From Patescibacteria group bacterium (GTDB taxonomy: Bacteria; Patescibacteriota; UBA1384; XYA2-FULL-43-10), in the NCBI GenBank assembly GCA_041674405.1, contig JBAYVT010000004.1, positions 119,611 to 151,610 of the forward strand: 32,000 bases of DNA. The letters run 5' to 3'. A model generated the notes under the pieces. That model ran no database searches. It was not told the origin of the DNA and saw nothing but the letters and a program-made list of their open reading frames with translations. The position numbers were made by a program, and so were the translations under genes. The number at the start of each line of letters is the position of its first letter. Position 1 is the first letter of the stretch. Below are positions 11,567 through 32,000 of the stretch, piece by piece.

Positions 11567-11606
11567 TAAACGCGAAAACGCCGCAGATCGTACTGATCCG
11601 CGGCGT
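11567..11606 (-). terminator. Intrinsic terminator of the block-A operon
   Basis: Minus strand reads ACGCCGCGGATCagtacGATCTGCGGCGT (11578-11606) followed by TTTTCGCGTTTA, that is, a GC stem plus a U-rich tail. It lies 27 nt after the lipoprotein stop. Confidence 0.7.
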
Positions 11607-11632
11607 CCTCGGTGATACCCTCCATGGCGTGT

Positions 11633-12367
11633 CTACTTCTTGGGGCTTGTCCTCGCCAAGTCCGCGTTGTAGACCCGTTCGATGGCTTGGCTGTCCGCTT
11701 CGCCGTCTCGGATGTTGATTTCCTTCGGCCAGGGCTTTATCTTCCAGTGATTGCCCTGGTAGCCGTCGGAGATGGCCAGCCAAAGGTGCTCGCCCTGGCG
11801 AATGCCCATCGGGTAGTTGGGTCCAGCCAGCGCCAGGTCCTCCCATACAGCATCCGAGAGCTTCTGCTCGACTTCCAGCTTGATGCCGTCGAGAGTTCCC
11901 GAACCGATGACCAGACTTTGCTGCCTCCCGAGATGATGTAGCACAACGGTGACTTGGCCTTCTGGATTGTTGGGGGGCGGCAGCGGAGTGCCGGGCGCTA
12001 CCCCGGGGACCGCCGTGTTGCTGACCGGAGTGATGGTGATTTCGGTGTACTGCACGCCATCACTCGAGGTGGTGCCCACGGGGTAAATCTTGACCGAAGG
12101 CACATTCCAGATCTCCATGAGCCCCTGCATCACAGGGCCAAGGTTCGTCCAGTTCGGGTCTCTGGTGGCGAATAGCGCCATTCCTTCGTTGTAGTCAAGG
12201 AGACCGCTTGCCCCGTGATGCGTGACGTCGTTCAGGTTCTCGATCTTGTGCAAGGACGATGCCGACATCGCTGTGGTAGACGCGGTGTTGCTGCCGGTAT
12301 TGGTGCAGCCGGCAATCAACAACGCTAGCAGCAGAATCACGAGCAAAGACAACGGAACGTTTCTCAC
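11633..12367 (-). CDS. Lipoprotein of unknown function (paralogue of the 12525-13322 product)
   Basis: GGGAGGG, then ATTCTT, then GTG at 12367. The N-terminus (M)RNVPLSLLVILLLALLIAGC is a signal peptide plus lipobox (L-I-A-G-C). The GC-rich third codon positions agree with this frame. Confidence 0.75.
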   Translation of the reverse strand: MRNVPLSLLVILLLALLIAGCTNTGSNTASTTAMSASSLHKIENLNDVTHHGASGLLDYNEGMALFATRDPNWTNLGPVMQGLMEIWNVPSVKIYPVGTTSSDGVQYTEITITPVSNTAVPGVAPGTPLPPPNNPEGQVTVVLHHLGRQQSLVIGSGTLDGIKLEVEQKLSDAVWEDLALAGPNYPMGIRQGEHLWLAISDGYQGNHWKIKPWPKEINIRDGEADSQAIERVYNADLARTSPKK

Positions 12368-12524
12368 AAGAATCCCTCCCAAAGTTTCAGCCCCGCCTTG
12401 GAGGCGGGCTGTATGGCTGCGGAATCAGAATATCCGAGCGGGCTGCCCCGCACCACATGAGTGGGGGACGGCACCGCTTGGTGCTAGCCTCAATGAGACT
12501 AACCAAGCACAAGTTGTAGGGTTC

Positions 12525-13322
12525 CTAGTCCGGCTGGCCCTTGGGGTCGTACCGCGGCGTCGACGGGGGTTGTGCCGCGAACTGGACCTCGGCGTGCTCA
12601 GTTGCGAGCTTGTTGCCTTTGGTATCCAGATTCGACCAGGTGATCTTGGCGTAGACCGCCTTGACACCCCAGTACGCCTTGAGGTCTCTGACGGCATCCC
12701 CGAAACCCGCAAGCTGGGGATCCTGGGAGACCCAGTCAGCAAAGCGCGTACTGAGCGTCTTGCCGTCTACGAAGCTGAATCCGCCCTGGGACAAGCTCTT
12801 GTCTGCGATCAGCGCTTGCCGATCATGGGTTGCGAGCTTGGATTCCAGGTTGGACTCGGCCACTGATGCCAGAAAGGCCCTCTCGATAGCCTCGGGGTAC
12901 GTCTCGGTCAGGCCGACCTTGACCTTCTCTGGCCACGAGCAGAGGTTCCAGGTGGGATCGCCCATCCGCCAGACGGAAACCTCGGCGAACCAGAACTGGT
13001 CACCCCTAACGATCCCAAGACCCGAGTACGCCCAGTGTTCCATGTCCTTGTTGACCTTCGCCAAGATCGACTTGTCGCCGATCGTGAGCGAAAGGCCGTC
13101 CAGCGTGGCCGGGGAATTCATGGTTTCCCTGGTGCCAAACTTGTACAGCACCAGAGTCACCGGACCATCGGGGTTGTCAGCCGGCCGAGTGCTTGCCGGC
13201 ATCTCGGGGACGACCTTGAGGGTCACTTCGGGAGCCTCAGCCTTTTCGGTCGTGCAGCCGGGCATCCAGACTACCATCATGACAGCGATCGCGGTCATGA
13301 TGAACTTCAGAATATGCTTCAC
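12525..13322 (-). CDS. Lipoprotein of unknown function (paralogue of the 11633-12367 product)
   Basis: GGAGGG, then ATTCCC, then GTG at 13322. The N-terminus (M)KHILKFIMTAIAVMMVVWMPGC is a signal peptide plus a lipobox-like M-P-G-C. It shares the block VT-VL..G..TLDG..L....GI..G..W.A.S...WP.......AIER with the downstream lipoprotein. Confidence 0.7.
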   Translation of the reverse strand: MKHILKFIMTAIAVMMVVWMPGCTTEKAEAPEVTLKVVPEMPASTRPADNPDGPVTLVLYKFGTRETMNSPATLDGLSLTIGDKSILAKVNKDMEHWAYSGLGIVRGDQFWFAEVSVWRMGDPTWNLCSWPEKVKVGLTETYPEAIERAFLASVAESNLESKLATHDRQALIADKSLSQGGFSFVDGKTLSTRFADWVSQDPQLAGFGDAVRDLKAYWGVKAVYAKITWSNLDTKGNKLATEHAEVQFAAQPPSTPRYDPKGQPD

Positions 13323-13463
13323 GGGAATCCCTCCATGGTAGTCAGTCACGCTTGGGGGCGTGCTGTTGTTGTCGGATAGCAATCTCCGAGCGGGATGGCG
13401 CCAATCGCGAAGATTGAAGCGCCGACTCCGCTTGGGCCGACCAAAGTCGGTTTGGGCTCAATT

Positions 13464-13568
13464 CTACTTGTGGCTAAGCATCATGTGGCAAATCGCTCCG
13501 ATGAAGAGGAGTAGGCCACCGGTGCCAGCAACCAGCAGGTCATTTATTACATGCATTACTGCGTCCAT
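13464..13568 (-). CDS. 34-aa hydrophobic small membrane peptide
   Basis: Not in the ORF track because it is too short. AGGAGGAG lies 7 nt upstream of the ATG at 13568. Translation is MDAVMHVINDLLVAGTGGLLLFIGAICHMMLSHK with stop TAG at 13464-13466, which gives one predicted TM helix. Confidence 0.55.
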   Translation of the reverse strand: MDAVMHVINDLLVAGTGGLLLFIGAICHMMLSHK

Positions 13569-13672
13569 GTGTGTGCTCCTCCTGTACTGTAATCATTCGA
13601 GCAGTCTCGCTCGGCACCCTTGTGGGATGCTGAGCGGGAACTGCGCAAGTGAATGCGCGTGATGGCCAAGGG

Positions 13673-14086
13673 CTAGCCCCAGCCGTCCAAAACCGGGAAA
13701 GTGTAGGTCGCGATGACCTTGCCATCCTTGTGTGCGATGGCAGTGCACATGCCAGGCGCCTGGAAGACCCAGTTCTTGCCTGTTGGGAGGATGATGGCCC
13801 CCTTGCCATCCGTCCCCTCGGTGACCGTGATCTGCGCATCGACGCCCCCCTGGGGGCTCGGCGTGCCGATCTCCCTTGAGGCGACTACGTAGAAGTCGGT
13901 AGGGACTGTGATGGCCGTCTCGGTCGCCGGGCGCCAGACGTGATCTGTGGAGGCCCAGATCTGCATCTGGATGTGATACTGGGGAGCTGTCGGCATGGGG
14001 CTGCCGCCACCGGCGCAGCCGGCGAGCACGACAGTCAGGAGTACGGCAATCACGAACCAGCAAAACGACGAAATCTGCTTCAACAT
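13673..14086 (-). CDS. Small lipoprotein of unknown function
   Basis: GGGAGGG, then TTTCAA, then ATG at 14086. The N-terminus MLKQISSFCWFVIAVLLTVVLAGCAGGG is a signal peptide plus a classical L-A-G-C lipobox. The track ORF start at 14167 is an upstream over-extension. Confidence 0.75.
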   Translation of the reverse strand: MLKQISSFCWFVIAVLLTVVLAGCAGGGSPMPTAPQYHIQMQIWASTDHVWRPATETAITVPTDFYVVASREIGTPSPQGGVDAQITVTEGTDGKGAIILPTGKNWVFQAPGMCTAIAHKDGKVIATYTFPVLDGWG

Positions 14087-14157
14087 TTGAAACCCTCCCG
14101 GGGTAGTGGTATGGCGCGCGCAAGCGCAGCGCCTATTGTTACTCAAGGTAACCGAAC

Positions 14158-14186
14158 AATATAACATAAAATATAAGAAATGTCAA
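14158..14186 (-). promoter_or_regulatory. Sigma-70-type promoter facing the block-A operon
   Basis: Minus strand reads TTGACA (14186-14181), a 17-nt spacer, then TATATT (14163-14158). It lies in AT-rich sequence just outside the GC-rich block, about 65 nt upstream of the first lipoprotein ATG. Confidence 0.6.
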
Positions 14187-14249
14187 TATTGTTGAGCGTG
14201 GTTAGATGTGCTAATCTTACGCTGTAACAGCTAGATTGATAGGAGAATT

Positions 14250-15953
14250 ATGAACATGATCCTCGTTTTTGCGCCAATAGCGGCAGCTTTGATCTCGGTA
14301 CTATTCGGGCTTGTCACGCTTATCCGTGCAGGCAACTCTCATGTTAGTAACAAAAAAATCCTCGATGCCGGAAAAGATGTCGAAAAAAAGGTTCGCTCCT
14401 ATATCAGCCGTGAATTTAATGTACTTGCGGTTTCGGTGGTGATTTTATTCGTAATATTGCTCTATTTGCTCGGTTGGAAGATCAGCCTTACTTTTCTCGC
14501 AGGTGCCGTCATCACGATTGCGGTCAATCTTACAAATTCAATTCTATTTGCACGGGCTTATTCACGCATTGTTGAGGATACGCGCTCAAACCAAATCAAC
14601 GCTGCAAATATTATATTTACTCTTTCCGGAGCTTCGTCTTTGTTTGCATTCGGAGCGGCTCTTGTTGCAAGTGTTATAACTTATGTATTATCTGGAGACT
14701 TTGTTTTTCTGCTTTCACTCACTTTGGGCGCGATTTTGGTTGAAATTATCTCAAAACTGCGATTTCACGGGATTTCAGATAAAAACACCGAAAAAATCGA
14801 GATAAATGAGAACGATCACACCTCCGGAGGACTTATCGGCGCGGTTGCCGGAGTATCCGCGGCAGGCGTTTATTTTATCTCAAACTTATATTCAGGAACT
14901 GAAAACTCGGTGTATTTATCTTTCCTTATTCTGGGGTTGGGGGCCATTGCAATGCTAATAGGCGTACTTATCACAAGATTCCGAACCGACATGAAGCTGG
15001 GCCGGCTTATGCTCACATTCCTTATAATTCCCTCGGTGTTGATTCTGGTAGGATCATATTTTGCTGTATCTTGGTTGATTTATGGAGAAGGCTTACATGC
15101 CACGATCAATCTATCGGTTTCTGCACTCGCTGGCCTGATCGCAGCATTCATGCTGTATATATCCGGCTATTTCATCTCTCAAAAATATCGCCTTCACGGC
15201 GAAAATTATATCCTAATTTCAAATGTAATCTCGATTGTTCTCGCCATCGCTGCAATTTTGGGCATCTATACCCTAAATGGATATGCTGGAGTTTCAGTAT
15301 TCGCGCTGGCCCTGTCAGCTTTTCTTATCCCAATGATGTCGCAATCACGTATGCTTTCAACAAGTAGTAATGCCGAGTTTGTAAGAGCCATTTCTGGCAT
15401 TGAAATGGAGACAGACAAGATCAAGGGTGCGTATGACTCAACAAATGTCTTTCGCAGAAGTTTGGCAGACTACCCGTTTTATCTAGCTATCATTGTAAAT
15501 TTACTCCTCTTTTGGGTGTTTATTGGTAGAATGGGGAGCAGTATGCTTTCCGCAAATTTATCCGATCCTTACCTTATTGCCGGAATCGTCCTCGGGGGAT
15601 TGGCTGCATATGTACTTGCTATGAATCTATCTGGTTGGGTAAAACAGGGAATAATCGTGCCGATCGCTATCCTTTTAGCCCTTCCGGCTCTATCTGGACT
15701 ACTTTTGGGTGCCAGCATGTCATTCGGGGCAGTGATTGGCTATGTTGTCGTAGCGTTGATTTTGGCGGCGATCAATGATCGGGTCTCGATCAGTGTGAGT
15801 TCCATCGGGTTGATTCTGGGTGCGACATTATTTTCATCGCTAATTAAAATGGCTCCAAGTTTGCGTTTGAAACTCATAATCGGAATTGCTCTAGTCGTAT
15901 TGATCCTGGTCTATGTTGTAATGTCTCGAATGACAAAAAAGGAAGCTAAATGA
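14250..15953 (+). CDS. Polytopic membrane protein related to membrane-bound pyrophosphatases (M-PPase/HppA family) but apparently lacking the catalytic acidic motifs
   Basis: AGGAG lies 6 nt upstream of the ATG. The 567-aa product has about 14-16 hydrophobic segments. From memory of Thermotoga M-PPase, several blocks align: GWKISLTFLAGAVITIA..FARAYSRIVEDTR vs TWQTGVAFLLGAVMSA..ATRANVRVAEAAR; GVSVFALALSAF..ISGIEM vs GVAIAALGMLSF..GGISEM; and PALSGLLLGASMSFGAVIGYVV vs PLVTGFLLGAEFVGGVLIGTVL. I cannot find the GGG-x-x-TKAADVGADLVGK, DNVGDNVGD, DSYGPIADNAGG or GDTVGDP motifs. Confidence 0.5.
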   Translation: MNMILVFAPIAAALISVLFGLVTLIRAGNSHVSNKKILDAGKDVEKKVRSYISREFNVLAVSVVILFVILLYLLGWKISLTFLAGAVITIAVNLTNSILFARAYSRIVEDTRSNQINAANIIFTLSGASSLFAFGAALVASVITYVLSGDFVFLLSLTLGAILVEIISKLRFHGISDKNTEKIEINENDHTSGGLIGAVAGVSAAGVYFISNLYSGTENSVYLSFLILGLGAIAMLIGVLITRFRTDMKLGRLMLTFLIIPSVLILVGSYFAVSWLIYGEGLHATINLSVSALAGLIAAFMLYISGYFISQKYRLHGENYILISNVISIVLAIAAILGIYTLNGYAGVSVFALALSAFLIPMMSQSRMLSTSSNAEFVRAISGIEMETDKIKGAYDSTNVFRRSLADYPFYLAIIVNLLLFWVFIGRMGSSMLSANLSDPYLIAGIVLGGLAAYVLAMNLSGWVKQGIIVPIAILLALPALSGLLLGASMSFGAVIGYVVVALILAAINDRVSISVSSIGLILGATLFSSLIKMAPSLRLKLIIGIALVVLILVYVVMSRMTKKEAK

Positions 15954-16183
15954 GTATGCCAGAAGAATCAAAAACGACAACATTTACCCTTGATCGCTTC
16001 GAGGGAAGCAAAGCGATCTTGATCGGCGAACATGAGGAGGTCATTGTTCCCAAGAAAATTGTTCCCAAAGGTGTAGGCGAGGGTGATATAGTGCATCTCA
16101 CCTTGTCGTCCGATGAATTCGAGACCAAAAAACGCGAGAAAACCGCCAAAGAAATTTTGAATGAGATACTGAACCAAAAATAA
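15950..16183 (+). CDS. DUF3006-family small protein
   Basis: 77 aa. FTLDRFEGSKAILIGEHEEVIVPKKIVPKGVGEGDIVHLTL matches the DUF3006 pattern (DRFEG..AVL....E..VP...LP....EGD). ATGA overlap with the upstream gene. Confidence 0.7.
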   Translation: MSMPEESKTTTFTLDRFEGSKAILIGEHEEVIVPKKIVPKGVGEGDIVHLTLSSDEFETKKREKTAKEILNEILNQK

Positions 16184-16353
16184 CCATGGCTTACTGGTAA
16201 ATAATTTAGTATTATCGGAATAGAAAACAAAAACAGAACTACACTATTGATAGAGATTGCTTCGTTGCAAGCTCCTCGACCCAGGGGGTCCCCTTGGGGG
16301 CAATGACAAAAAGGGTTCTCAACGGGCTCGAACTAAAGGGTATTTTAAGCTAT

Positions 16354-18261
16354 ATGGCAAAGGGCAAAGAAAAGAAAAAATTACAAATTAAAATCAATTT
16401 TGATTTTTTAAAGAGTAAATATTTGCGTTATGTGGCACTAGGAATTGCTGCAATTCTTATTTTGCTTTTGATCACATTTGGTATTTATTCAATCTCGTAT
16501 GCGCATAAATCTTACAAGAATATCAAGATCGGGGATATTGCCTTGGGTGGCAAAACTGAGGGAGAAATAAAAGATATTTTACAGACGAATTCAAATCAAT
16601 TTTTGGCAAAAAATATCATTCTTTCTTATCAGGGAGACAATCCAAAAGATTATCAAGTTGCCCCTGCTGATATCGGATTGGCTTATGATGTCGATGGGAG
16701 TATGAAGAGAGTGATGGGGATCGGGCGTGATAGAGGTATTTTCCGTGACTTCTGGGAACAGCTAAAATCCGTATTTTCTGAACAAAATGTGCCAATGCTT
16801 TATAGCGTGAATGATTCAGCCCTTTCGGACAAAATTGCCGCAATTGCAAAAGAAGTTGATATACCGGAAAAAGATTATTCGATTTCGTACCAAGGTGGGG
16901 AATTTGTTCTCTCTACCGAAAGAGCGGAGGGCAAAAGGATCGATCAATTGGGATTGATCAATAATGTCAAATATCAAATTTCAAATGTCAAAAGTAATCC
17001 GATTGCATTCAACGCACAGAAATATGTGCCGCAGGTAGATGAAGTGAAGGCGCAAAAACGGCTTTCTGAGGCGCAGAATATTCTTTCTGGCGGTGATTTG
17101 GTTCTAAATTATAAAGATTTTGAATTTACCTTGGGCGGCGATGATATTGGGAAATTGATTTTATCCAAGACTGATGGAGATGATCTGAAACTATATGTGT
17201 CTTCCGAACAAGCCACGAATCAAATCAAAAACATGGCGACAACTATCAATTCCGAGCCTGTCAATGCACAATTTTCGGTTGTTGGGGGAAGCGTTACAGC
17301 TTTTGCAGTGTCGAAAGACGGATTAAAGTTGGACGAAAACCAGACCAAAGTGGATATCGAAAATGCACTACTTGGCAGGGTTTACAAAGTAGCCGAGGGA
17401 ATTGATACAAAAAAAATCAGCCTGAAAGTTGCTGTCACTAAACCGGCCGTTTCTTCGGATGATGCAGGAAAATATGGCTTAAAAGAATTGGTATCTACCG
17501 GTGTCACAACGTTTACCGGTTCGCCCTCAAATCGAATTCACAATATCAATGTGGGTGCAGCTGCTATCAATGGTGCTCTCTTGGCACCAGGAGAAACTTT
17601 CTCGACCCTAGGACGCTTAGGAAAAATTGATGCATCCACAGGTTATCTTCCGGAATTAGTAATAAAGAACGATAAGACAGTGCCGGATTATGGCGGAGGG
17701 CTGTGCCAGGTTTCAACCACCCTTTTTCGTGCAGCATTGAATTCGGGAATGGAAATAGTCGAGCGGCAGAATCACTCTTATCGCGTATCCTATTACGAAC
17801 CGCCGGTTGGGATGGACGCGACAATTTTTGATCCAGCCCCTGATTTTAAATTCAAAAATAATTACAATTCATACATTCTGATCCAAGCCCAAGTCGTCGG
17901 GACTAAGATTACTTTTCAGTTTTATGGCACAAAAGATTCAAGGATTATCTCAATTGGGACTCCGTCGGTTTACGATGTGATAAGCCCACCTACTCCTCTT
18001 GAGATACCGACAGACACTCTTAAGGTTGGTGAAAAGAAAAAAATCGACTCCGGCCATCCGGGGGCGACAGCGAGCTTTCATTATAAAGTCACCCGTGACG
18101 GAGCGATTTTACAGGAAAAAGATTTTGTATCGAAATATGTTCCTTGGCAGGAAAAATGGCTGGTTGGAACGGTTCAGCCGGAACCTGTCCCTGAGCCCGC
18201 ACCTGAACCCACTCCCGAGCCGGCTACGCCAACGGCTGATCCTGCAACTCCAACAACATAA
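16354..18261 (+). CDS. VanW-family protein with N-terminal membrane anchor and C-terminal G5-like domain plus Pro/Glu/Thr-rich tail
   Basis: The YGGGLCQVSTTLFRAALNSGMEIVERQNHSYRVSYY block is the VanW core. There is a TM helix, YVALGIAAILILLLITFGIY. The C-terminus is PEPVPEPAPEPTPEPATPT. The start is ambiguous: TTG 16294, ATG 16303 or ATG 16354. I list 16354 (MAKGKEKKK..). Confidence 0.8.
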   Translation: MAKGKEKKKLQIKINFDFLKSKYLRYVALGIAAILILLLITFGIYSISYAHKSYKNIKIGDIALGGKTEGEIKDILQTNSNQFLAKNIILSYQGDNPKDYQVAPADIGLAYDVDGSMKRVMGIGRDRGIFRDFWEQLKSVFSEQNVPMLYSVNDSALSDKIAAIAKEVDIPEKDYSISYQGGEFVLSTERAEGKRIDQLGLINNVKYQISNVKSNPIAFNAQKYVPQVDEVKAQKRLSEAQNILSGGDLVLNYKDFEFTLGGDDIGKLILSKTDGDDLKLYVSSEQATNQIKNMATTINSEPVNAQFSVVGGSVTAFAVSKDGLKLDENQTKVDIENALLGRVYKVAEGIDTKKISLKVAVTKPAVSSDDAGKYGLKELVSTGVTTFTGSPSNRIHNINVGAAAINGALLAPGETFSTLGRLGKIDASTGYLPELVIKNDKTVPDYGGGLCQVSTTLFRAALNSGMEIVERQNHSYRVSYYEPPVGMDATIFDPAPDFKFKNNYNSYILIQAQVVGTKITFQFYGTKDSRIISIGTPSVYDVISPPTPLEIPTDTLKVGEKKKIDSGHPGATASFHYKVTRDGAILQEKDFVSKYVPWQEKWLVGTVQPEPVPEPAPEPTPEPATPTADPATPTT

Positions 18262-18279
18262 ACTATATTTGTGCTCTAA

Positions 18280-18807
18280 GACGCAATTTCGGCCCAGGTG
18301 AACACACCGGGCCGAAAGGTTAACCATGCCCGAAACGGGCAGGAGAGATTGGGGGTTACCCGGGAACTCTGCTCGGCAACCGTCACCGACACCATCACCG
18401 ACAACTGGCAACGACACCGAACTCTGAGCAGTAATAGTACAGCGCTCATCAACCACAGAACCATCCGTGGTCGGGGAACGACTCTGACGCCGTGCGCGCT
18501 GACATCGGGTAACCGAAACTGGAATATCTTGACCCCGCCACTCGGCGGAGATTGGCTACGAAAGCCTGGTCGATCGAGGCATCGGTTTCACCCTTCCGGC
18601 GGAAAGCTGAACAAGCGATGCATAGCGCTATCTCCAGGCAGTCGACAGGGGAGCCACCTCCCAGCAAACAGCATACACATGCTACGCGTTTTGCGTTTGT
18701 GGTGGCGCTACGTGGGGAGAATCTCACAGCTAACATACGTACTAGCTGATCGAAACCCCTATAGGCAGTGGTTGCACCCATTTTCCATGCATGCTGCGCC
18801 TCTCTGT
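18280..18807 (-). ncRNA. Candidate large (about 530 nt) structured non-coding RNA of unrecognised class (GC-rich block B)
   Basis: GC-rich stretch between convergent and divergent CDSs. The only ORFs (179 aa plus strand, 124 aa and 115 aa minus strand) have R/C/H-rich, non-protein-like translations and no SD. It contains many local hairpins. At least two helices need G-U pairs that exist only on the minus strand: CGACCAC/GTGGTTG near 18453-18473 and CTCCGCC/GGCGGGG near 18534-18551. It is bracketed by a promoter-like site and a 9-bp GC hairpin. Confidence 0.5.
18287..18317 (-). terminator. GC-rich hairpin at the 3' end of the candidate ncRNA (could also serve the convergent VanW gene)
   Basis: TTTCGGCCC-GGTGtgttCACCt-GGGCCGAAA gives 9 + 4 bp. 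On the minus strand it is followed by TTGCGTCTT, a weak U tract. The flanks are symmetric (T-run and A-run). Confidence 0.5.
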
Positions 18808-18813
18808 ATCTGT

Positions 18814-18842
18814 AAACTATCAAACACAGCTTCCTAAGTCAA
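18814..18842 (-). promoter_or_regulatory. Putative promoter of the candidate ncRNA
   Basis: Minus strand reads TTGACT (18842-18837), a 17-nt spacer, then TAGTTT (18819-18814). The -10 is weak. Confidence 0.35.
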
Positions 18843-18961
18843 GTTTGTGTTGGATGAAAGAAAGTAATCCGTAGTCTGTGACCTGTGAAGTAAAAGAATT
18901 TTTTAAGGACTACGAAGACAGACTACAGACTAATAATTTTAGCTATGCTAAAATAAAATTG

Positions 18962-22073: not shown

Positions 22074-22075
22074 AT

Positions 22076-23671: not shown

Positions 23672-23710
23672 GAGAACTCCTCATTTATCAAATAGAACGA
23701 ATACTTAACC

Positions 23711-23750: not shown

Positions 23751-23822
23751 ACCACTACTATTTTATTTTATAAAACTATTTTATCATGAAATTACCCCAA
23801 GGGTTCAAAAAATTATTCACAT

Positions 23823-24509: not shown

Positions 24510-24531
24510 TTTTGCCTTGGCGAGCATGATA

Positions 24532-24622
24532 TTGACTTAAAAACATCCTGTCATTTATAATAGAGTCGATGGTAGCAACGACGTTTCCCCCTTGCGTTGG
24601 CGCTGCCATCATTTAATTTTTT
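24532..24622 (+). ncRNA. Promoter plus hairpin plus U-tract unit: candidate about 55-nt sRNA, or simply the terminator of the upstream gene
   Basis: TTGACT (24532-24537), an 18-nt spacer, then TATAAT (24556-24561). About 7 nt later an imperfect stem of about 13 bp spans 24568-24610 (GATGGTAGCAACG...CGTTGGCGCTGCCATC) with the loop TTTCCCCCTT. It is followed by ATTTAATTTTTT. Confidence 0.35.
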
Positions 24623-24690
24623 GCGGCTTGATCTGGGCCGCATTTTTTAGTAATATTGGAGTTGAGAGCTGGAGGGTTCCGGCTTTTTTT
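24623..24690 (+). terminator. Two further plus-strand intrinsic-terminator-like hairpins
   Basis: GCGGC-ttgatctgg-GCCGC followed by ATTTTTT (24623-24648). GCTGGA-gggt-TCCGGC followed by TTTTTTT (24668-24690). Confidence 0.5.
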
Positions 24691-24838
24691 GATCGCAAAG
24701 CGATCAACTCCGAGCCCCGAGCCGAAGGAGCCAATGCCTACCCGTTGAGTCTTCCCTTCGGGAAAGGGGACCCTTTGGGTCATGTCGAGGAGTGAACAAA
24801 CACTATGGCTCGAAGCAAACACCGCGTACCGCATGGTG

Positions 24839-24867
24839 TTGACAATATGTCAAGCAAACTTTACAAT
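24839..24867 (+). promoter_or_regulatory. groES-groEL promoter with overlapping palindrome
   Basis: TTGACA (24839-24844), a 17-nt spacer, then TACAAT (24862-24867), 31 nt upstream of the groES ATG. The -35 is part of the perfect palindrome TTGACA-ATA-TGTCAA (24839-24853). Confidence 0.65.
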
Positions 24868-24898
24868 TCATTTGCAAAATATTAATTTTGGAGGCATT

Positions 24899-25177
24899 AT
24901 GCTTAAACCACTTGGAGACAAGGTTCTGATCGAGCCGACATTGGCTGAAGAAAAAACAAAGTCTGGAATCATTATTCCTGACACTGCCAAAGAAGCCAAG
25001 GCAGAAGGCAAAGTTGTGGCACTTGGCACAGGTAAATTGCCTGAAGGTAAAAAACATGAGTTTTCGGTGAAGATTGGAGATAAAGTTCTCTACGGAAAAT
25101 ATTCCGGTGATGAAGTGAAGATTGATGGCAAAGAATACAAGGTTATGAAAGAGGATGAAATCCTCGGAATTTTCTAA
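24899..25177 (+). CDS. groES: Co-chaperonin GroES
   Basis: GGAGG lies 6 nt upstream of the ATG at 24899. MLKPLGDKVLIEP..KTKSGIIIPDTAKE.. is canonical GroES. The track ORF start at 24782 is an over-extension. Confidence 0.95.
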   Translation: MLKPLGDKVLIEPTLAEEKTKSGIIIPDTAKEAKAEGKVVALGTGKLPEGKKHEFSVKIGDKVLYGKYSGDEVKIDGKEYKVMKEDEILGIF

Positions 25178-25200
25178 TAGCTTGATAATAAGGAGAATAA

Positions 25201-26838
<1,638 letters not shown>

Positions 26839-26896
26839 ATCGCAAATAAATTTGCGAAATCAAAATTAAAAACTTAAAACTCAAAACTCTGGTAAA

Positions 26897-26931
26897 GCAA
26901 AAAGCCCCGGCGTAAACCGCGGGCTTTTTGC
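26897..26931. terminator. Bidirectional intrinsic terminator between groEL and the convergent PRC-barrel gene
   Basis: GCAAAAAGCCCCGGcgtaaaCCGCGGGCTTTTTGC is a GC stem flanked by an A-run and a T-run. Confidence 0.75.
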
Positions 26932-26945
26932 TTGGATAGCACTAT

Positions 26946-27491
26946 TTAGATAACTATACTTTTATCCAATTCCATCGCTGGGGTCTTGATCACCTCAAAA
27001 TCATCCTCGATTGTCATGCGTTTTCCCTCAAGTTTGACTACTGCATCCCGGCTTATTATTCGATCATTAAAGATTGATTTCACATAAAATTTTTCGATAG
27101 CGCCTGTTTCGTTGTGAAAGGTGTAGTCATAAACTTTTCCAATCAATTTGCCGGATTTTGTTCTGACGATCTGTCCGACACCAAACATTCGGTCTTTAAT
27201 CGCTTCAAAAACGCGAATTGATTCTTTGATTGGCACGGGGGAATTGTCATCGACAACCAGCACAGAACCTGAAGTAAATTCCTGAATGTCCGAGACGCTA
27301 ATTGCTTTTTTTTCATCGAAAAAGAATGCTCCCTCACGCATGATGACGGCTTTGACTGAGAGATCGCTTTTTTGAATTACAATATCCAAAACTCGGCCAA
27401 GCTTTTGGTAGCCTCGCATTTCATAAACAGGAGAATGGAGTATTTGAGTGTACCTAACAATCACGTTCCCTCCGGGAATGACGAATTTCAA
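26946..27491 (-). CDS. PRC-barrel domain protein (YlmC/YmxH-like, two PRC-like halves)
   Basis: Contains two segments of the pattern G..V....G..LG.V.D: MRGYQKLGRVLDIVI and FGVGQIVRTKSGKLIGKVYDYTF. The start is ambiguous: TTG at 27491 per the track, or GTG at 27464-27462, 4 nt after GGAGG. Confidence 0.6.
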   Translation of the reverse strand: MKFVIPGGNVIVRYTQILHSPVYEMRGYQKLGRVLDIVIQKSDLSVKAVIMREGAFFFDEKKAISVSDIQEFTSGSVLVVDDNSPVPIKESIRVFEAIKDRMFGVGQIVRTKSGKLIGKVYDYTFHNETGAIEKFYVKSIFNDRIISRDAVVKLEGKRMTIEDDFEVIKTPAMELDKSIVI

Positions 27492-27509
27492 ATTTCAAAC
27501 AAAATGTTT

Positions 27510-27562
27510 AATGACCAAATTTTTGAACTTCTAATTTGTCATTTTATTTGTCATTTGTCATT
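27510..27562. repeat. Cluster of TTTGTCATT repeats (three direct copies plus one near-inverted copy)
   Basis: TTTGTCATT at 27535-27543, 27547-27555 and 27554-27562. AATGACCAAA at 27510-27519 is a one-mismatch reverse complement. The cluster lies between the efp stop and the PRC-barrel gene start. Confidence 0.85.
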
Positions 27563-27585
27563 CGGATTTTGATATTAGAAAGAGA

Positions 27586-28143
27586 TTAGCCTCTTTCAAC
27601 ATAGCTTCCATCACGTGTATCTACTACAATTATATCACCAACATTGATAAAAAGTGGAGTATCAACGGAATTTCCGGTTTCAATAGTAACTTTTTTTGTC
27701 GCAGCGCCGGCGGTGTTGCCCCGAACAGAGGGCGGAGCTTCGGTCACCGCAAATTTGAGTTTGATTGGCAGGTCAATATTTATTGGAGAGCCATTAAAAT
27801 AGAGAATATCAACTTCTGAATTTTCGCTCATAAAATGAATCTGGTTGCCAATTTGGGGAAGTGCGATCGTAAATTGATCATAGGTTGAATTATCCATAAA
27901 ATTGGCATTGGAATCATCTGCATAGAGAAAAGTCGCTTTTTTCTTTTCGAGGTTGGCTTCATCTAATTTTTCAGCGCCCTGAAATGTTTTATCAAGCACG
28001 GCGCCGGATTTTAGGTTTTTGATTTTAATTTTAACGACCGATCCACCTCTGCCCATTTTTGATTGGGAGTATGACAAAACCTCATAAGGATCGCCCATAT
28101 ATGTAAGTTTGGTACCAGATTTTAGATCTGTAATTGAAAGCAT
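27586..28143 (-). CDS. efp: Translation elongation factor P
   Basis: 185 aa. MLSITDLKSGTKLTYMGDPYEVLSYSQSKMGRGGSVVKIKIKNL is canonical EF-P, including the KMGRGG loop. Confidence 0.93.
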   Translation of the reverse strand: MLSITDLKSGTKLTYMGDPYEVLSYSQSKMGRGGSVVKIKIKNLKSGAVLDKTFQGAEKLDEANLEKKKATFLYADDSNANFMDNSTYDQFTIALPQIGNQIHFMSENSEVDILYFNGSPINIDLPIKLKFAVTEAPPSVRGNTAGAATKKVTIETGNSVDTPLFINVGDIIVVDTRDGSYVERG

Positions 28144-28145
28144 AG

Positions 28146-28205
28146 CTTGATATCAAGTATAAAGTAACATGTATCAATCTTGATTCTTGATACTTAATTC
28201 TTGAT
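28146..28205. repeat. CTTGAT half-site array upstream of efp
   Basis: The perfect 12-bp palindrome CTTGATATCAAG (28146-28157) abuts the efp ATG. TCTTGAT occurs at 28178-28184, 28185-28191 and 28199-28205. Confidence 0.85.
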
Positions 28206-28215
28206 CCTGGTTGAA

Positions 28216-28440
28216 TTATTTAATTGTAAATGGTAGCAGTGCCAAATGTCTTGCGCGTTTGATGGCAACTGTCATCCAGCGCTGATGCTTGGCGCAATTG
28301 CCGTTTCTGCCGGCGGAATCAATTTTATTCCATCGGTTGAGATAACGAGAAAGAGTAGCAACATCTTTGTAATCGATCTCGGCTACCTTGGCTTTGCAAA
28401 AATTACATTTTTTTCTCATTGGTCTGAAGTCTTTTGCCAT
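28216..28440 (-). CDS. rpsR: 30S ribosomal protein S18
   Basis: 74 aa. CNFCKAKVAEIDYKDVATLSRYL..GRNGNCAKHQRWMTVAIKRARHLALLPF is the canonical S18 pattern. Confidence 0.93.
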   Translation of the reverse strand: MAKDFRPMRKKCNFCKAKVAEIDYKDVATLSRYLNRWNKIDSAGRNGNCAKHQRWMTVAIKRARHLALLPFTIK

Positions 28441-28451
28441 TTGTTTCCTTT

Positions 28452-28485
28452 AGCTTCTAGCTGTCAGCTTCTAGCTGTCAGCTTA
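28452..28485. repeat. Short tandem repeat AGCTTCTAGCTGTC x2 plus a partial copy in the ssb-rpsR spacer
   Basis: The sequence reads tAGCTTCTAGCTGTCAGCTTCTAGCTGTCAGCTTATC. Each unit contains the small palindrome GCTGTCAGC. Confidence 0.85.
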
Positions 28486-28535
28486 TCTTGTTATTTTTTA
28501 TGCTCTGCAAGCTCGACAGCTGATCGCTGCAAGCT

Positions 28536-29024
28536 TTAGAATGGTATCTCTTCTATGTCGATTTCTTCCATATCGTCTGCTGAATTTGCTGGCTTGTCTG
28601 CCTTGCCTTTGCTGTCAGACGGTGCGATGTCATCTACAGGGTTTGAATCCTTGGGCACATAAGTGCTTCCATCTCCGCGGCTGGAAAGTGCAATTACCAG
28701 GTCGGCGATGATCTCTGTTTTGTATCTTTTTACGCCATCTTGCCCTTCCCAGTTTCTGGTTTGAAGGCGGCCTTCAACATAAGCGGGGGCACCTTTCTTC
28801 AAAATCTGTGTTAGGTTTTCGGCTTGTTTACCCCAGACGACGATGTCATGGTATTCGGTAGCTTCACCAGCTTCGCCATCCTTACTGGTCCAGCGCCTAT
28901 TTGTTGCTACAGTAAAGTTTGTTACTGCTTGGCCATTTGGCGTGTATCTCATCTCTGGATCGCGTGTTAAATTTCCAATAATCTGTGCTCGATTTAGATT
29001 TAACATTTTATCCTCCCACCGCAT
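28536..29024 (-). CDS. ssb: Single-stranded DNA-binding protein
   Basis: 162 aa. The OB-fold start LNRAQIIGNLTRDPEMRYTPNGQAVTNFTVATNRRW and the acidic tip DIEEIPF are characteristic of SSB. Confidence 0.93.
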   Translation of the reverse strand: MRWEDKMLNLNRAQIIGNLTRDPEMRYTPNGQAVTNFTVATNRRWTSKDGEAGEATEYHDIVVWGKQAENLTQILKKGAPAYVEGRLQTRNWEGQDGVKRYKTEIIADLVIALSSRGDGSTYVPKDSNPVDDIAPSDSKGKADKPANSADDMEEIDIEEIPF

Positions 29025-29036
29025 TGCGGTTAATAA

Positions 29037-29867
29037 TTAGAGGTCGTCGCCGAGAATGTCGTCGAGCTCTTTATCGAGCTTGGCGAGCCTATCGGCTTCA
29101 TCTTCTACATTATCACTTTTTACCGCTTTTGTTTTAACTTTTCCGACCGCGGCTTCGGCCTTGGCCGAGACGGGTGGTTTGTCGGATGTCTTGGTAGAAG
29201 CTGTTTTGGCCGTAGGTTTTTTCGGAGTTTCTTTCTTTATTTTCTTCTCTTCTTTTTTAACCTCTCCCGCTTCCTCTTTCACTTCCTCTGTTTTTTTTGC
29301 GCGAGGCTTTCGTGCCTTTTTCTCTTCAGCCTTCACTTCCTCTTTAACTTTCAGCTCTTCTGCAGGCTTTTCTTCGGCTGCTTCTTCCGCTGGCAATTCT
29401 TCCTCTGTCTTGGTTTCTTCCGATTCCTCTTCAATTTTTTCTTCATCGCGCTTAGCCATGAGGTCGTAACTTTCTTCGGTTTCGCCCTCAATTGCCTCAA
29501 AGCTCTTCTCACCGCCGACAACTTCCTCAATTTCTTCTGTTTCGGCAATATCCTCAGCAGTCAAAGTGAGTTCTTCTTTGCCAAAGTCGCGCACGATTGT
29601 TAAATGCCGCAAAATTTCCGGTGCATGCATAATATCTTTTTCAATCTCGCGCAAATTCTCGGGTTCAAGCTCAAAATTGAGAGTAATGTAGGTTGCAAAC
29701 TGCTGCTTCTTTATTGGATAGGCAAGTTTGCGTCTGCCCCAACTCTCTTCCTTAAGCACTTTTCCTTTGGCATCGGCAATATAGCCGTTCACCTTGCCGG
29801 ACACCTTGTTGATGTCTCCCTCTGGAACATCATCAGAAATCAAATACGTAAGCTCGTATTGTCGCAT
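29037..29867 (-). CDS. rpsF: 30S ribosomal protein S6 with a C-terminal Glu/Lys-rich extension of about 170 aa
   Basis: The N-terminal about 100 aa, MRQYELTYLISDDV..WGRRKLAYPIKK..ATYITLNFE, is canonical S6. The remainder is low-complexity E/K/A-rich sequence ending in DKELDDILGDDL. Confidence 0.9.
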   Translation of the reverse strand: MRQYELTYLISDDVPEGDINKVSGKVNGYIADAKGKVLKEESWGRRKLAYPIKKQQFATYITLNFELEPENLREIEKDIMHAPEILRHLTIVRDFGKEELTLTAEDIAETEEIEEVVGGEKSFEAIEGETEESYDLMAKRDEEKIEEESEETKTEEELPAEEAAEEKPAEELKVKEEVKAEEKKARKPRAKKTEEVKEEAGEVKKEEKKIKKETPKKPTAKTASTKTSDKPPVSAKAEAAVGKVKTKAVKSDNVEDEADRLAKLDKELDDILGDDL

Positions 29868-30040
29868 AAATCTCCTTGTTTCTATCGCTTTCTTGGCACC
29901 CTTGATCCCATGAGATGGGAGGGTTCCCCTAAGGGGAAAAAGCTGTGTTGTTAAGAACAGATGTTCGCCATGAACTTCCTAGGATCCCGTCCGATCCCTC
30001 CACTCGAAAGTTCATGGCGCCTTATCCGTTCTCGATAAGC
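29868..30040 (-). promoter_or_regulatory. Structured 5' leader of the rpsF-ssb-rpsR operon (possible S6:S18 autoregulatory leader)
   Basis: About 173 nt between the predicted TSS and the rpsF ATG. It has a perfect 12-bp helix, CGCCATGAACTT (29966-29977) pairing with AAGTTCATGGCG (30008-30019). Further hairpins are CTTATC/GATAAG, CCCC-tta-GGGG and ACCCT-CCCAT-ctc-ATGGG-atca-AGGGT. Confidence 0.5.
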
Positions 30041-30046
30041 ATGCTC

Positions 30047-30075
30047 ATACTAGCAAGTTTGATCGTGTTTGTCAA
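30047..30075 (-). promoter_or_regulatory. rpsF operon promoter
   Basis: Minus strand reads TTGACA (30075-30070), a 17-nt spacer, then TAGTAT (30052-30047). Confidence 0.65.
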
Positions 30076-30093
30076 TGCTTTAGCGGAGATATT

Positions 30094-31140
30094 TTATGTA
30101 ACAAAATTTTCATGGTGAGCGAGGATTTTTTTCATTTCAATGTCAATATCGCCGCCATCGATCAGCGATTTGGCAGCTGCGAGATAGGGAAATTGCTCGG
30201 CAATCATTTTCTTCGGCATCTTCTTATGTACGGCCGAATAAATCGAGCTTACATTTGTAATGCATTCGGAAACGCCTTCGGTAACCTTCTTTCTTGATTC
30301 CTCAAGGCTAAATTTCTTGCCCATGAAGTGCCCGAGGGCGAAGTTGCGGCTTGAGTCAGATTCGCAGAGCTTAAGGTCAGCTTCGATGATGCGAAAAACC
30401 TTGGATCCGATGCGATGGATTTCCTTTGATGCACCCAATTCTCGCGCCAGCAGTTTAGCTTCCTGTCCGATGGCAGAAAAAGTAATTGCAATCGTGGAGA
30501 CCGGTGGTTTACGATGCATCATACGCTCGAAATAGCCGTATACAAAACCCTGTTCGAATGAAGCGATCGTGCGTAGCGCATTGTGAATGTTGACGCCAAA
30601 AACATCGCTTGAGCAGGTCGGCCAGATATTTGAACCAGAGAAAAGTTTTGCGAAATCATATGCTACAGATTTGTTTCTTGGGTGATGGACGACGATCATG
30701 CCAGCAGGAGCCTTGTCGGCGAGATCTTTGGCAAATCCAGCTCCGGTGAATTGGATAACCCGCGCCTTTGGATATACTTTACGCGCGACGTCGGTAGGGG
30801 TGGTGAGATCGGGAAGCATGCCTTTTTGAATCAAAACTAACGTGGAATGGTTGGAATAATTTAGCCGCTCAAGCGTACCGGCAATCCCGCTCATCGAGCT
30901 TGAAATAATCACAAAATCATAATTTTTCGAGTTCAGCTTAGGCTCAAGCGATAATTTCAGATTTTTTGGGAATTTGTGGTTGGCAAGGAAGGGATAGCGA
31001 TCACTTTTTCCGATTTTTTGCCAATGTTTGATCAAATTTTTGTCAATATCCCAAAGCGTAATATCGTGCCTGTTGCGTGCAAGTACAAGTGCAAGTGCTG
31101 TACCGAATCCTCCCGCCCCCATAATGGCAATTTTTTTCAT
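30094..31140 (-). CDS. gpsA: NAD(P)H-dependent glycerol-3-phosphate dehydrogenase-like protein
   Basis: The N-terminus MKKIAIMGAGGFGTALALVLARNRHDITLW closely follows the GpsA Rossmann start. The C-terminal half is more divergent, so substrate assignment is tentative. Confidence 0.6.
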   Translation of the reverse strand: MKKIAIMGAGGFGTALALVLARNRHDITLWDIDKNLIKHWQKIGKSDRYPFLANHKFPKNLKLSLEPKLNSKNYDFVIISSSMSGIAGTLERLNYSNHSTLVLIQKGMLPDLTTPTDVARKVYPKARVIQFTGAGFAKDLADKAPAGMIVVHHPRNKSVAYDFAKLFSGSNIWPTCSSDVFGVNIHNALRTIASFEQGFVYGYFERMMHRKPPVSTIAITFSAIGQEAKLLARELGASKEIHRIGSKVFRIIEADLKLCESDSSRNFALGHFMGKKFSLEESRKKVTEGVSECITNVSSIYSAVHKKMPKKMIAEQFPYLAAAKSLIDGGDIDIEMKKILAHHENFVT

Positions 31141-31146
31141 GAGTTT

Positions 31147-31175
31147 ATAATACTTGTTAATTATTGCTGTGTAAA
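31147..31175 (-). promoter_or_regulatory. Promoter of the gpsA-like gene; the predicted TSS is at or within a few nt of the ATG (leaderless or near-leaderless)
   Basis: Minus strand reads TTTACA (31175-31170), a 17-nt spacer, then TATTAT (31152-31147). Only 6 nt (AAACTC) separate the -10 from the ATG, and there is no SD. Confidence 0.45.
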
Positions 31176-31182
31176 CGCGAGC

Positions 31183-31216
31183 TGAAACACGAGACCCCAG
31201 CCGGGGATGGCTGGGG
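31183..31216 (-). terminator. Intrinsic terminator after the GC-rich block-C gene
   Basis: Minus strand reads CCCCAGCC-atcccc-GGCTGGGG (31216-31195) followed by TCTCGTGTTTC. Confidence 0.65.
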
Positions 31217-31247
31217 CTCGAATCTTGAAGCGTAGAGCGGGGATGCC

Positions 31248-32000
31248 CTAAGCGCTGAGTAATGCTACTATGTCCAGTTCGTCGGTGTCGACGAAGATCT
31301 CTGCCTCGCTGACTTCGGAGGGTTCGGGGACGAAACCAAGCTTGTCGCCAAGCTCGGCGTAATACTTCATGTCAGCCAGCCTGACTTTGGCTCCTCTTGA
31401 GGCGTGTTCGGCAGCGCCCTCGAGGTCGTACGCATCCATAATGGTCTCCACCACGCAGGCAGGAACCCTAGGATTACCATCTTCGTCGTACCCGAAATGC
31501 CAGTTGACTCCACTCTTGATCTGCTCCCCCTCTTTGTGCGGTAGCTTCACCGGGCCGCAGCACACGAGTCTGAAGTCCATTTCGGGATGTTCCTTGAGAA
31601 TCCTGCGGTCGAAGTTGGCCGGGGTAGCCGTATCGATGAATACGGTGCCAGGCTTGTAGTTCAGGCAGTTCTCAAGGGTGATGATGGGCTTGTCGGAGTT
31701 GGTGACGAGTATGACGATGTCGGCATCGAACCCGTCTCGGGGATCGGTAGAGATGCGGGTGGTTTTGGCAAAACCACGTAGCTTCTCTTCGTTGCGGCCT
31801 ATGGCAGTCACCTGCGCGCAGACCGATTCCAGGTAGGTCGTTGTGATCCGGCCGATAAAGCCGGAGGCGCCATAAATGGCAGCCTTAGCCATGTTCAGAG
31901 GCACCCTGGTTTTTTGCCCGGCGGCGCGTACTGTAGTGACAGAGGTGTATGCCGCGCCGTTCTCAATGGTACTGCCCAGGTTGCGTTTGTTGGTCCATGC
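31248..32000 (-). CDS. COG5322-type NAD(P)-binding oxidoreductase (acyl-ACP-reductase-like fold family); the N-terminus runs off the window
   Basis: GC-rich. The reading frame stays open from 32000, reading AWTNKRNLGSTIENGAAYTSVTTVRAAGQ.. ahead of the track start. Rossmann motif AAIYGASGFIGR. The block order resembles cyanobacterial acyl-ACP reductase as I recall it: T-G-N-x-x-TA.. then V-G-A-T/S-G-x-IG, A/GRN-x-E-x-L, DADIV.., ..IDxxxPxN.. and a C-terminal ..AC..E..... segment. Confidence 0.5.
   Translation of the reverse strand, partial: AWTNKRNLGSTIENGAAYTSVTTVRAAGQKTRVPLNMAKAAIYGASGFIGRITTTYLESVCAQVTAIGRNEEKLRGFAKTTRISTDPRDGFDADIVILVTNSDKPIITLENCLNYKPGTVFIDTATPANFDRRILKEHPEMDFRLVCCGPVKLPHKEGEQIKSGVNWHFGYDEDGNPRVPACVVETIMDAYDLEGAAEHASRGAKVRLADMKYYAELGDKLGFVPEPSEVSEAEIFVDTDELDIVALLSA

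Follow-up and report, generated by a model that had tools for sequence, protein, structure and literature searches.

Three GC-rich blocks in a Patescibacteria chromosome segment read as probable horizontally acquired, moron-like transcription units

The chromosome segment analysed here, a 32,000-nt stretch (the window) of contig JBAYVT010000004.1 from a Patescibacteria group bacterium, contains three blocks (A, B and C) of high guanine-plus-cytosine (GC) content in a low-GC backbone, which raises the question of whether these blocks were acquired from a GC-rich source or are the product of a misjoined assembly. The blocks are genuine parts of the chromosome and not assembly errors, and they were interpreted, at a probability of roughly 0.6, as foreign-composition, moron-like transcription units inserted at intergenic hot spots of a Berkelbacteria-like candidate phyla radiation (CPR) bacterium. 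Acquisition from a high-GC source, proposed in the original prediction, is the best reading for A and C, and no donor was found. The acquisition reading is based on a shift in codon and amino-acid usage, a dinucleotide signature common to the blocks, empty sites in related genomes, and different cargo at the same sites elsewhere. The coordinates of all features are collected in Table 1.

A 300-nt sliding window revealed three plateaus of 56-63% GC against a background of 35-47%, the GC fraction being 0.60 in A, 0.57 in B and 0.57 in C, and 0.40-0.43 in the backbone. Maximum-likelihood change points were placed at 11579, 14134, 18807 and 31176, none of them more than about 10 nt from the borders first predicted, and the claim that the borders are sharp was upheld except at the left edge of B, which was blurred: its change point (18158) fell inside the VanW gene, because the proline-rich C-terminal tail of VanW is itself GC-rich. 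Blocks A and B, said to begin right at the stop codons of backbone genes, begin close to them, 22 nt past the GT4 stop and 27 nt past the VanW stop, respectively. The minus-strand orientation proposed for all three is supported in A by its open reading frames (ORFs), ribosome-binding sites, promoter and terminator, and in C by its ORF and a third-position GC content (GC3) of 0.70; the strand of B was predicted because the minus strand has a weak promoter-like site, closes in a 3' hairpin and folds better (z-score -3.1, versus -2.2 for the plus strand). Strong 3' hairpins, also anticipated, close all three blocks; that of A is followed by a U tract and that of C is acceptable as an intrinsic terminator, but B lacks a proper U run. 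At their other ends, blocks A and B each begin where a sigma-70-type promoter in AT-rich DNA is predicted to initiate transcription, or no more than about 20 nt away.

The suspicion that the contig is a mosaic was not borne out, given that all five junctions recurred at 99.8-100% identity in contigs from other sequencing runs and assemblers. The window corresponds to positions 1-32000, reversed, of the 158-kb ENA contig ERZ27247358:k141_1092591 (window position 32000 is contig position 1), a MEGAHIT k141 product; the Logan contigs were assembled with k = 31, and the JGI contigs came from another sample. A metagenome-assembled genome (MAG) deposited at NCBI as "Patescibacteria group bacterium" holds identical proteins (A265 = MFA7244335.1, hypothetical protein WC080_03560). 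A chimera, in which pieces of a high-GC organism had been misjoined into a CPR contig, would account for the sharp GC steps, for the location of block C at a contig end, where the ENA and Logan contigs both stop exactly at window position 32000 (the JGI contig ends 54 nt earlier), and for a Logan contig break at 14024-14052 within block A. It is nevertheless hardly credible, as the junctions were reproduced in Logan contigs from two runs, in JGI contigs (3 mismatches in 5.2 kb) and in the MEGAHIT k141 contig, the promoters and terminators of the blocks are positioned exactly at the junctions, and islands occupy equivalent sites in relatives. At 14024-14052, within the signal-peptide region of A137, two Logan SRR6484325 contigs have 29 nt in common. 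The graph breaks at this place and at 32000 may reflect population variants or repeats within the islands.

The composition of the coding blocks was found to be foreign at several levels. GC-rich third codon positions were confirmed, with GC3 values of 0.70-0.82 in the genes of A and C versus 0.33-0.51 in the backbone, and synonymous codon choice was shifted to match: AAA accounted for 13% of the lysine codons in the blocks versus 71% in the backbone, CTG for 35% versus 11% of the leucine codons, and ATC for 71% versus 34% of the isoleucine codons. The proteins were shifted as well, with FYMINK fractions of 0.21-0.25, below the backbone range of 0.26-0.41, and GARP fractions of 0.27-0.30 versus a backbone mean of 0.22, which points to a long residence in a GC-rich genome rather than to recent synonymous drift. 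In dinucleotide relative abundance (distance delta* x 1000), a measure normalised for base composition in which GC-rich coding DNA may nevertheless share some signature trivially, the three blocks lay 63-85 from one another and 130-200 from the backbone, with size-matched backbone pieces at 58-132; the islands of one relative, L021 (described below), were close to the window blocks (53-121). The GGAGG-type ribosome-binding sites, which had been listed among the foreign features, precede all four genes of block A, but also about 10 of the 24 backbone genes, groES, groEL, ssb and rpsF included.

The relatives' loci revealed that the positions of A and B are variable. The nearest relatives by VanW protein (46-58% identity) include Candidatus Berkelbacteria RIFOXYA2_FULL_43_10 and other Patescibacteria MAGs, and the gene order GT4, pyrophosphatase-like gene (PPase), DUF3006, VanW, P-type ATPase and CTP synthase is kept in relatives with 47-58% VanW identity. 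At the GT4-PPase site, which holds block A in the window, three relatives (L012, L013 and L014) are empty, the two genes being directly adjacent with a short AT-rich spacer; in L011 the spacer has a 150-aa plus-strand ORF of backbone GC content and no GC-rich island. L021 (JBAZJN010000001.1) carries there a 2-kb minus-strand island of 58-68% GC, unlike block A, whose genes encode a membrane/zinc-ribbon protein (107 aa) and a larger protein (441 aa) that ends in an RpoA-CTD-like part, and L018, L019, L086, L091, L097, L099 and L100 carry still other GC-elevated minus-strand genes, mostly for lipoproteins but also for an M54-like peptidase. Unrelated GC-elevated cargo was found at this site in about nine lineages, every cargo gene being on the minus strand. 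The mature cargo proteins showed no robust homology among themselves or to block A, and neither the DNA nor the proteins of the blocks matched the relatives' loci in nhmmer, tblastn and tblastx searches. Among the individual cargo genes, a GC-elevated minus-strand gene for an M54 (archaemetzincin-like) peptidase lies in the GT4-VanW spacer of L018 (4669-5343), and a GC-elevated minus-strand gene for a four-repeat ankyrin protein lies between PPase and VanW in L080 (9023-9697).

The spacer between VanW and the ATPase measures 2-130 nt in L012, L013, L015, L019, L095 and L101, and 616 nt in the window, where it holds block B. In L011 it is about 700 nt long and contains a GC-rich non-coding core behind a minus-strand promoter (TTGACA-N17-TAATAT), and in L021 a 370-nt non-coding unit is joined there by a gene for a membrane protein of 208 aa, both having a consensus promoter and a terminator of their own. 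Alignment of the non-coding units that follow VanW in the window, L011 and L021 revealed no conservation beyond the tail. L011 also has, at 9630-9680 between VanW and the GC-rich non-coding unit, a perfect inverted repeat that resembles a palindrome (CAGAAACTGTCTTAGATTATCGTCGATCGACGATAATTGCAGACAGTTTTAAG). Presence/absence polymorphism among syntenic relatives was thus seen for both A and B, with empty sites and other cargo, and, judged from this synteny, A and B are insertions relative to the relatives' empty sites. In 1.15 Mb of related loci, some 61 segments were marked as GC-rich, and the GT4-PPase and VanW-ATPase sites are therefore strongly over-represented, albeit in lineages that are not independent. 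A metagenome scan with the PPase-like protein found no closer siblings, and a scan with a VanW profile yielded relatives of at most 58% identity.

Block A, an operon of three orphan lipoprotein genes and one for a small membrane peptide, is truly coding, as supported by a strong GC3 periodicity, the four GGAGG-type sites, lipoboxes and a pair of paralogues. Its genes are transcribed in the order A137, A34, A265 and A244, behind what a consensus scan scored as the best promoter-like site in the region 11000-19500, with a predicted transcription start near 14151 and the GC step at 14134. Exact matches to TTGACA-N17-TAnnnT occur at only three sites in the window, the other two being upstream of groES and rpsF. 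The hairpin at the 3' end of the block is an intrinsic terminator facing the GT4 stop codon (11555-11557). A137, A265 and A244 have signal peptides with a lipobox; the products of the block are probably cell-surface proteins, and the small A34 gene was called independently in the JGI and Logan contigs. A244 and A265 have a paralogous domain, C-terminal in the former and N-terminal in the latter (30% identity over 117 aa, E = 3e-12). The intergenic leaders of the block are significantly structured (z-scores of -2.6 to -3.1), and those of A244 (12368-12450) and A265 (13323-13405) are about 65-70% identical over some 85 nt, although the proteins share only 30%, with a common motif (CCCGCTCGGA.ATT ... 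GGAGGGATTC). This suggests that the two leaders carry a conserved cis-regulatory RNA element, and the shared 85 nt imply that the duplication is old and took the leader along.

No relatives were recovered for the block A proteins that were searched. A244 and A265 had no Pfam or NCBIfam match and gave self-matches only in a k-mer-filtered search of 5.8 billion clusters, and a profile of their shared domain, run exhaustively with HMMER against 1.84 billion representatives, retrieved both proteins only. Three further profile matches (E = 1.5e-8 to 8e-5) were short, multi-stretch alignments to large repetitive proteins and were taken as non-homologous. A137 had no Pfam match and no relative by tblastn among the fetched loci, and its 90%-identity cluster comprised itself alone in an exact look-up (the large-database homologue searches did not include A137). 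A search of the PDB returned nothing for the block A proteins, an AlphaFold model of A265 made without an alignment had a predicted local distance difference test (pLDDT) score of 39 and was unusable, and the DNA of block A matched none of 50,697 phage records.

Block C ends, on its 3' side, just upstream of a gpsA-like gene in the same orientation. Its gene, C250, encodes a protein distantly similar to the NAD(P) domain found in the fold of acyl-ACP reductase, glutamyl-tRNA reductase and Shikimate_DH (Pfam Shikimate_DH, E = 1.5e-5; PDB 3oj0, E = 0.005). Membership in the acyl-ACP or glutamyl-tRNA reductase families was rejected, since the NCBIfam scores were far below the cut-offs (AcACP_reductase, TIGR04058, E = 8e-6, 25 bits versus 450; hemA, 17 bits versus 210) and only the NAD(P)-binding domain of the truncated protein aligned. 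No homologue of C250 was detected in the large-database search and no match among plasmid records.

Table 1. Features of the three GC-rich blocks and independent contigs that cover their junctions (window coordinates)
Feature	Position	Strand	Description or basis
Block A	~11579-14134	minus	GC steps, ORFs
Block A promoter (predicted)	14158-14186	minus	TTGACA-N17-TATATT, TG upstream, in AT-rich DNA
A137	13673-14086	minus	137-aa predicted lipoprotein; ATG start, GGAGG site, lipobox LAGC; MFA7244336.1; GC3 0.82
A34	13464-13568	minus	34-aa hydrophobic membrane peptide MDAVMHVINDLLVAGTGGLLLFIGAICHMMLSHK; AGGAGG site
A265 leader	13323-13463	minus	Structured, GC-rich; fold z-score -2.9
A265	12525-13322	minus	265-aa predicted lipoprotein; GTG start, GGAGG site, lipobox-like WMPGC; GC3 0.80
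A244 leader	12368-12524	minus	Structured, GC-rich; fold z-score -3.1; last ~85 nt homologous to A265 leader
A244	11633-12367	minus	244-aa predicted lipoprotein; GTG start, GGAGG 7 nt upstream, lipobox LIAGC; GC3 0.76
Block A 3' end	11560-11611	minus	17-bp GC-rich hairpin at 11573-11611, z-score -4.7, then UUUUCGCGUUUAU
Block B	~18288-18807	minus (predicted)	GC step at 18807 (left edge blurred); unit of ~520 nt (18288-18807), GC-rich, no convincing ORF
Block B promoter (possible)	18814-18842	minus	TTGACT-N17-TAGTTT, weak -10; read from the sequence, missed by the consensus scan
Block B 3' hairpin	18287-18317	minus	13-bp stem, z-score -3.0, no canonical U tail, 27 nt from VanW stop
Block C	31176 to window end	minus	GC step, ORF
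C250	31248-32000	minus	C-terminal 250 aa of a Rossmann-fold reductase-like protein, cut by contig end; GC3 0.70
Block C 3' end	31172-31220	minus	Hairpin at 31190-31220, z-score -4.2; downstream sequence GUGUUUCAG, also given as GUGUUUCAGCUCGCGUUUA
9-mer TAAACGCGA	11567-11575 and 31172-31180	plus	Junctions A and C
Logan SRR6484325_175405	4888-14052		100% identity; covers junction 11579
Logan SRR22315508_4711572	12266-14224		100% identity; covers junction 14134
Logan SRR6484325_129064	14024 to beyond 21261		100% identity; covers 14134 and both sides of B
JGI 3300037067 Ga0378408_0058023	10848-16100		99.8% identity, 3 mismatches, one N gap; whole block A
Logan SRR6484325_129260	27533-32000		100% identity; covers junction 31176
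JGI Ga0378408_0158156	29183-31946		100% identity; covers junction 31176

Block B was treated as a putative non-coding transcription unit or a decayed cassette. Its periodicity spread (0.04-0.22 by frame) was below that of A (0.24-0.44), with weak hints of a GC3 phase that bear on the reading as a frameshifted pseudogene; its ORFs had no Pfam match, and its transcription is predicted to start near 18807, on the GC change point itself. The original prediction had ruled out structural-RNA GC enrichment as an explanation for the coding blocks A and C; this does not extend to B, since B is non-coding. For this block, a native structured non-coding RNA gene, whose GC content would reflect RNA structure and not transfer, is unlikely but is the most serious of the competing explanations. 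The lack of a coding signal, the promoter-like site together with the 3' hairpin and the minus-strand fold (z-score -3.1), and the presence downstream of VanW in L011 and L021 of GC-rich units of 370-550 nt, non-coding and with consensus promoters on the minus strand, are all consistent with it. The fold z-score is modest, however, block B does not resemble the L011 and L021 units in sequence, the VanW-ATPase spacer of many relatives (2-130 nt) is too short for such a gene, and the dinucleotide signature of B matches that of the coding blocks A and C. No Rfam family was found in block B at the gathering threshold, only chance-level matches at E up to 10, and the whole window and six relatives' loci yielded nothing meaningful from Rfam at the gathering threshold.

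The 3' junctions of A and C had been noted to share a sequence, and this was confirmed: a 9-mer, TAAACGCGA on the plus strand, occurs exactly twice in the window, both times on these junctions. In L021, both island junctions of that locus, and no other position, carry a 17-mer (TGYTCTAAATAAAAAAG; 5696-5712 and 11894-11910), and the orthologous positions of the window, at 11559-11571 and 18272-18284, read TGTTCTCATAAAC and TGCTCTAAGACGC. The three sequences TGYTCTAAATAAAAAAG, TGTTCTCATAAAC and TGCTCTAAGACGC are near-identical. At both orthologous sites they sit in the gap that separates the stop codon of the backbone gene from the terminator of the island, and the two genomes concerned share only about 54% identity in VanW. 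Motifs of the TAAACGCGA or TGYTCTAAATAAAAAAG type were absent from the junctions of the other relatives. All of these motifs were found post hoc and were recorded, not built upon.

Two further explanations were weighed against acquisition. Vertically inherited, fast-evolving surface-protein loci would consist of an ancestral minus-strand lipoprotein locus at GT4-PPase and a unit downstream of VanW, both too diverged to be recognised, with a GC content kept high by GC-biased gene conversion at a recombination hot spot or by selection. Such loci would explain the recurrence, in about nine lineages, of one site and of the minus orientation, and why many of the cargos are lipoproteins; they would also fit the marginal similarities between cargo proteins (L097_148 versus L099_263, E = 2e-5; A137 versus L097_148, z-score 3.1), the 3' junction sequence TGYTCT.A.. 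common to the window and L021 at both sites, and the dinucleotide signature that the islands of these two genomes share. We consider this explanation improbable, because the cargo folds are unrelated (an M54-like peptidase, an RpoA-CTD-like protein and orphan lipoproteins), the mature proteins have no robust homology and several relatives have clean empty sites; moreover, the proteins too are shifted in their amino-acid composition, an effect not readily expected of gene conversion that acts on GC3 only. To our knowledge, there is also no bacterial precedent for gene conversion that lifts GC3 from 0.4 to 0.8 with nucleotide-sharp borders.

Cassettes moved by site-specific recombination (integron-like or Xer/dif-like), with the hairpin and motif as the site and a recombinase encoded elsewhere, would be in line with the single orientation, with the 3' hairpin on all units, with replaceable cargo at fixed sites, and with the restriction of TAAACGCGA to junctions A and C and of the 17-mer to the L021 island junctions. 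Such a system appears very improbable here: no integrase was detected in about 41 kb of the contig, A and B bear their own promoter-like site, unlike integron cassettes, the hairpins have no common sequence, the flanking repeats are no better than those of shuffled sequences, and the post hoc motifs are missing from the junctions of other relatives. A classical integrase-mediated island, for which the atypical composition and the polymorphism would be suitable, was rejected as neither integrase, tRNA or transfer-messenger RNA (tmRNA) genes nor att repeats were found. The early remark that no integrase, transposase or tRNA lies next to any block held in both searches made, of the Pfam domains of the called genes in the window plus the next 9 kb (integrases and transposases) and with ARAGORN in the window (tRNA and tmRNA); the relatives' loci had no tRNA either.

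Several observations weigh against horizontal acquisition of moron-like units, or limit what can be drawn from it. No donor or homologue was found for A244, A265 and C250 among 5.8 billion clusters, nor with the A244/A265 profile among 1.84 billion representatives, so that transfer is read from composition and synteny only. Integrase and tRNA genes were not found, neither direct nor inverted repeats in the flanks reached significance (a fraction of 0.04-0.99 of the shuffles scored as high as the real flanks or higher), and the blocks have neither shared element ends, longer common repeats nor hairpins of common sequence. The promoters are AT-rich and recipient-like, which means that simple copying out of a GC-rich genome did not produce the unit as a whole. 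VanW of the best relative is 58% identical, and the age of the insertions is consequently not estimable. On the side of the assemblies, the ENA contig ERZ27247358 was possibly assembled from one of the read sets of the Logan contigs, the far side of block C is lacking and three assemblies end at or near the same place, and the Logan SRR6484325 assembly breaks inside block A.

Under the preferred interpretation of acquired, moron-like units, the cargo would have evolved for a long time in one or more genomes of about 60% GC and would have entered the lineage by horizontal transfer, with illegitimate, recombinase-independent integration at intergenic sites. The end of the glycan cluster (GT4-PPase) and the VanW-ATPase spacer would be sites that tolerate repeated insertion in the clade, and each unit, with its own promoter and terminator, would be expressed autonomously and leave its neighbours undisturbed. 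That the transfer was recent, or that the donor was the host of an episymbiont, is speculation.

A phage moron, in the concept of Hendrix and Juhala, is an extra autonomous unit that consists of a sigma-70 promoter, one or more genes and an intrinsic terminator. Like morons, A and B are units placed between genes that are adjacent in relatives, with a composition unlike that of their neighbours; they differ from morons in that the blocks lie not in a phage but in a chromosome segment with rpsF, rpsR, ssb, efp, groESL and pyrG, that block A comprises four genes and that block B is non-coding. As regards a promoter of their own, that of A matches 11 of the 12 consensus positions, B has a weak -10 only, and the 5' end of C is beyond the contig. 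Integron cassettes are likewise short units of one orientation with a terminal hairpin and exchangeable cargo at a fixed place, but here IntI and attI are absent and conserved attC cores are apparently lacking, the units are scattered over separate loci, and A, and possibly B, comes with a promoter-like site of its own. The location of block A at the edge of a glycosyltransferase/Wzy/flippase cluster, and the lineage-specific genes found there, resemble the replacement islands of O-antigen-like glycan clusters, although the variable part is here a GC-rich lipoprotein unit outside the glycan genes.

The closest published counterpart is provided by the islets of Patescibacteria (PMC12455944), which the blocks resemble in their deviant GC content and codon usage, their patchy presence in syntenic relatives, their accessory or orphan cargo and their clustering beside a variable cell-envelope glycan cluster. 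The differences are that the blocks measure only 0.5-2.6 kb, that no tRNA, integrase, flanking repeats or donor was detected, and that the block borders fall on predicted transcript ends. Up to 13% of Patescibacteria genomes consists of genomic islands and horizontally transferred genes, mostly exchanged among Patescibacteria (PMC12455944), a share with which the proposed acquisition agrees. The blocks are thus a fresh example of an already known islet phenomenon, with orphan cargo.

The one part that might lead further is the pattern of hot spots, single orientation and shared signature across the clade. In its strongest form, this pattern would amount to a clade-wide cassette system in which promoter-to-terminator units of 57-60% GC, drawn from a common GC-rich pool (perhaps that of the host or a shared mobile one), are swapped, a proposal that we regard as a long shot. 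Units would then enter in a fixed orientation at a few fixed intergenic sites with no need for a local integrase, the junction motifs (TAAACGCGA; TGYTCTAA..) would mark the point of exchange, and the cargo would be a source of fast-changing surface lipoproteins and RNAs with a role in host interaction.

The backbone around the blocks begins with a cell-envelope glycan cluster of more than 25 kb, in the order AftD-like GT-C enzymes, an acyltransferase, LarA, two GT2 glycosyltransferases, a flippase, an FG-GAP protein, three Wzy_C proteins and GT4, and the glycan genes themselves have backbone composition. GT4 is followed by a divergent H+-PPase-like membrane protein, DUF3006, VanW, the P-type ATPase, a GNAT acetyltransferase and CTP synthase, and the last part contains groES/EL, efp, rpsR, ssb, rpsF and the gpsA-like gene. 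The PPase-like protein (window 14250-15953, 565-567 aa) matches Pfam H_PPase over its first ~160 residues only (E = 2e-8), whereas relatives carry H+-PPases of about 700 aa at this position, none of which was matched by the window protein in tblastn; L021, which also has islands at both sites, likewise has a short divergent PPase-like protein (516 aa). The window protein may be a degenerating or repurposed pyrophosphatase. Ribosomal protein S6 (window 29037-29867, 276 aa) has an acidic, lysine-rich C-terminal extension of about 170 aa, which causes the extreme AT and GC skew at 29000-29500, and an exact 55-nt direct repeat (window 4689-4743 and 4863-4917, 174 nt apart) is present within the gene for the FG-GAP repeat protein.

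Sharp GC steps in CPR MAGs are readily dismissed as errors of binning or assembly, and those described here are real. The locus provides a small and clean example of how the streamlined genome of an episymbiont gains surface genes without recognisable mobile-element machinery, at sites that are reused throughout the clade. If the pattern holds genome-wide, it would point to a specific, so far undescribed route of gene gain in Patescibacteria and would provide candidate host-interaction proteins.

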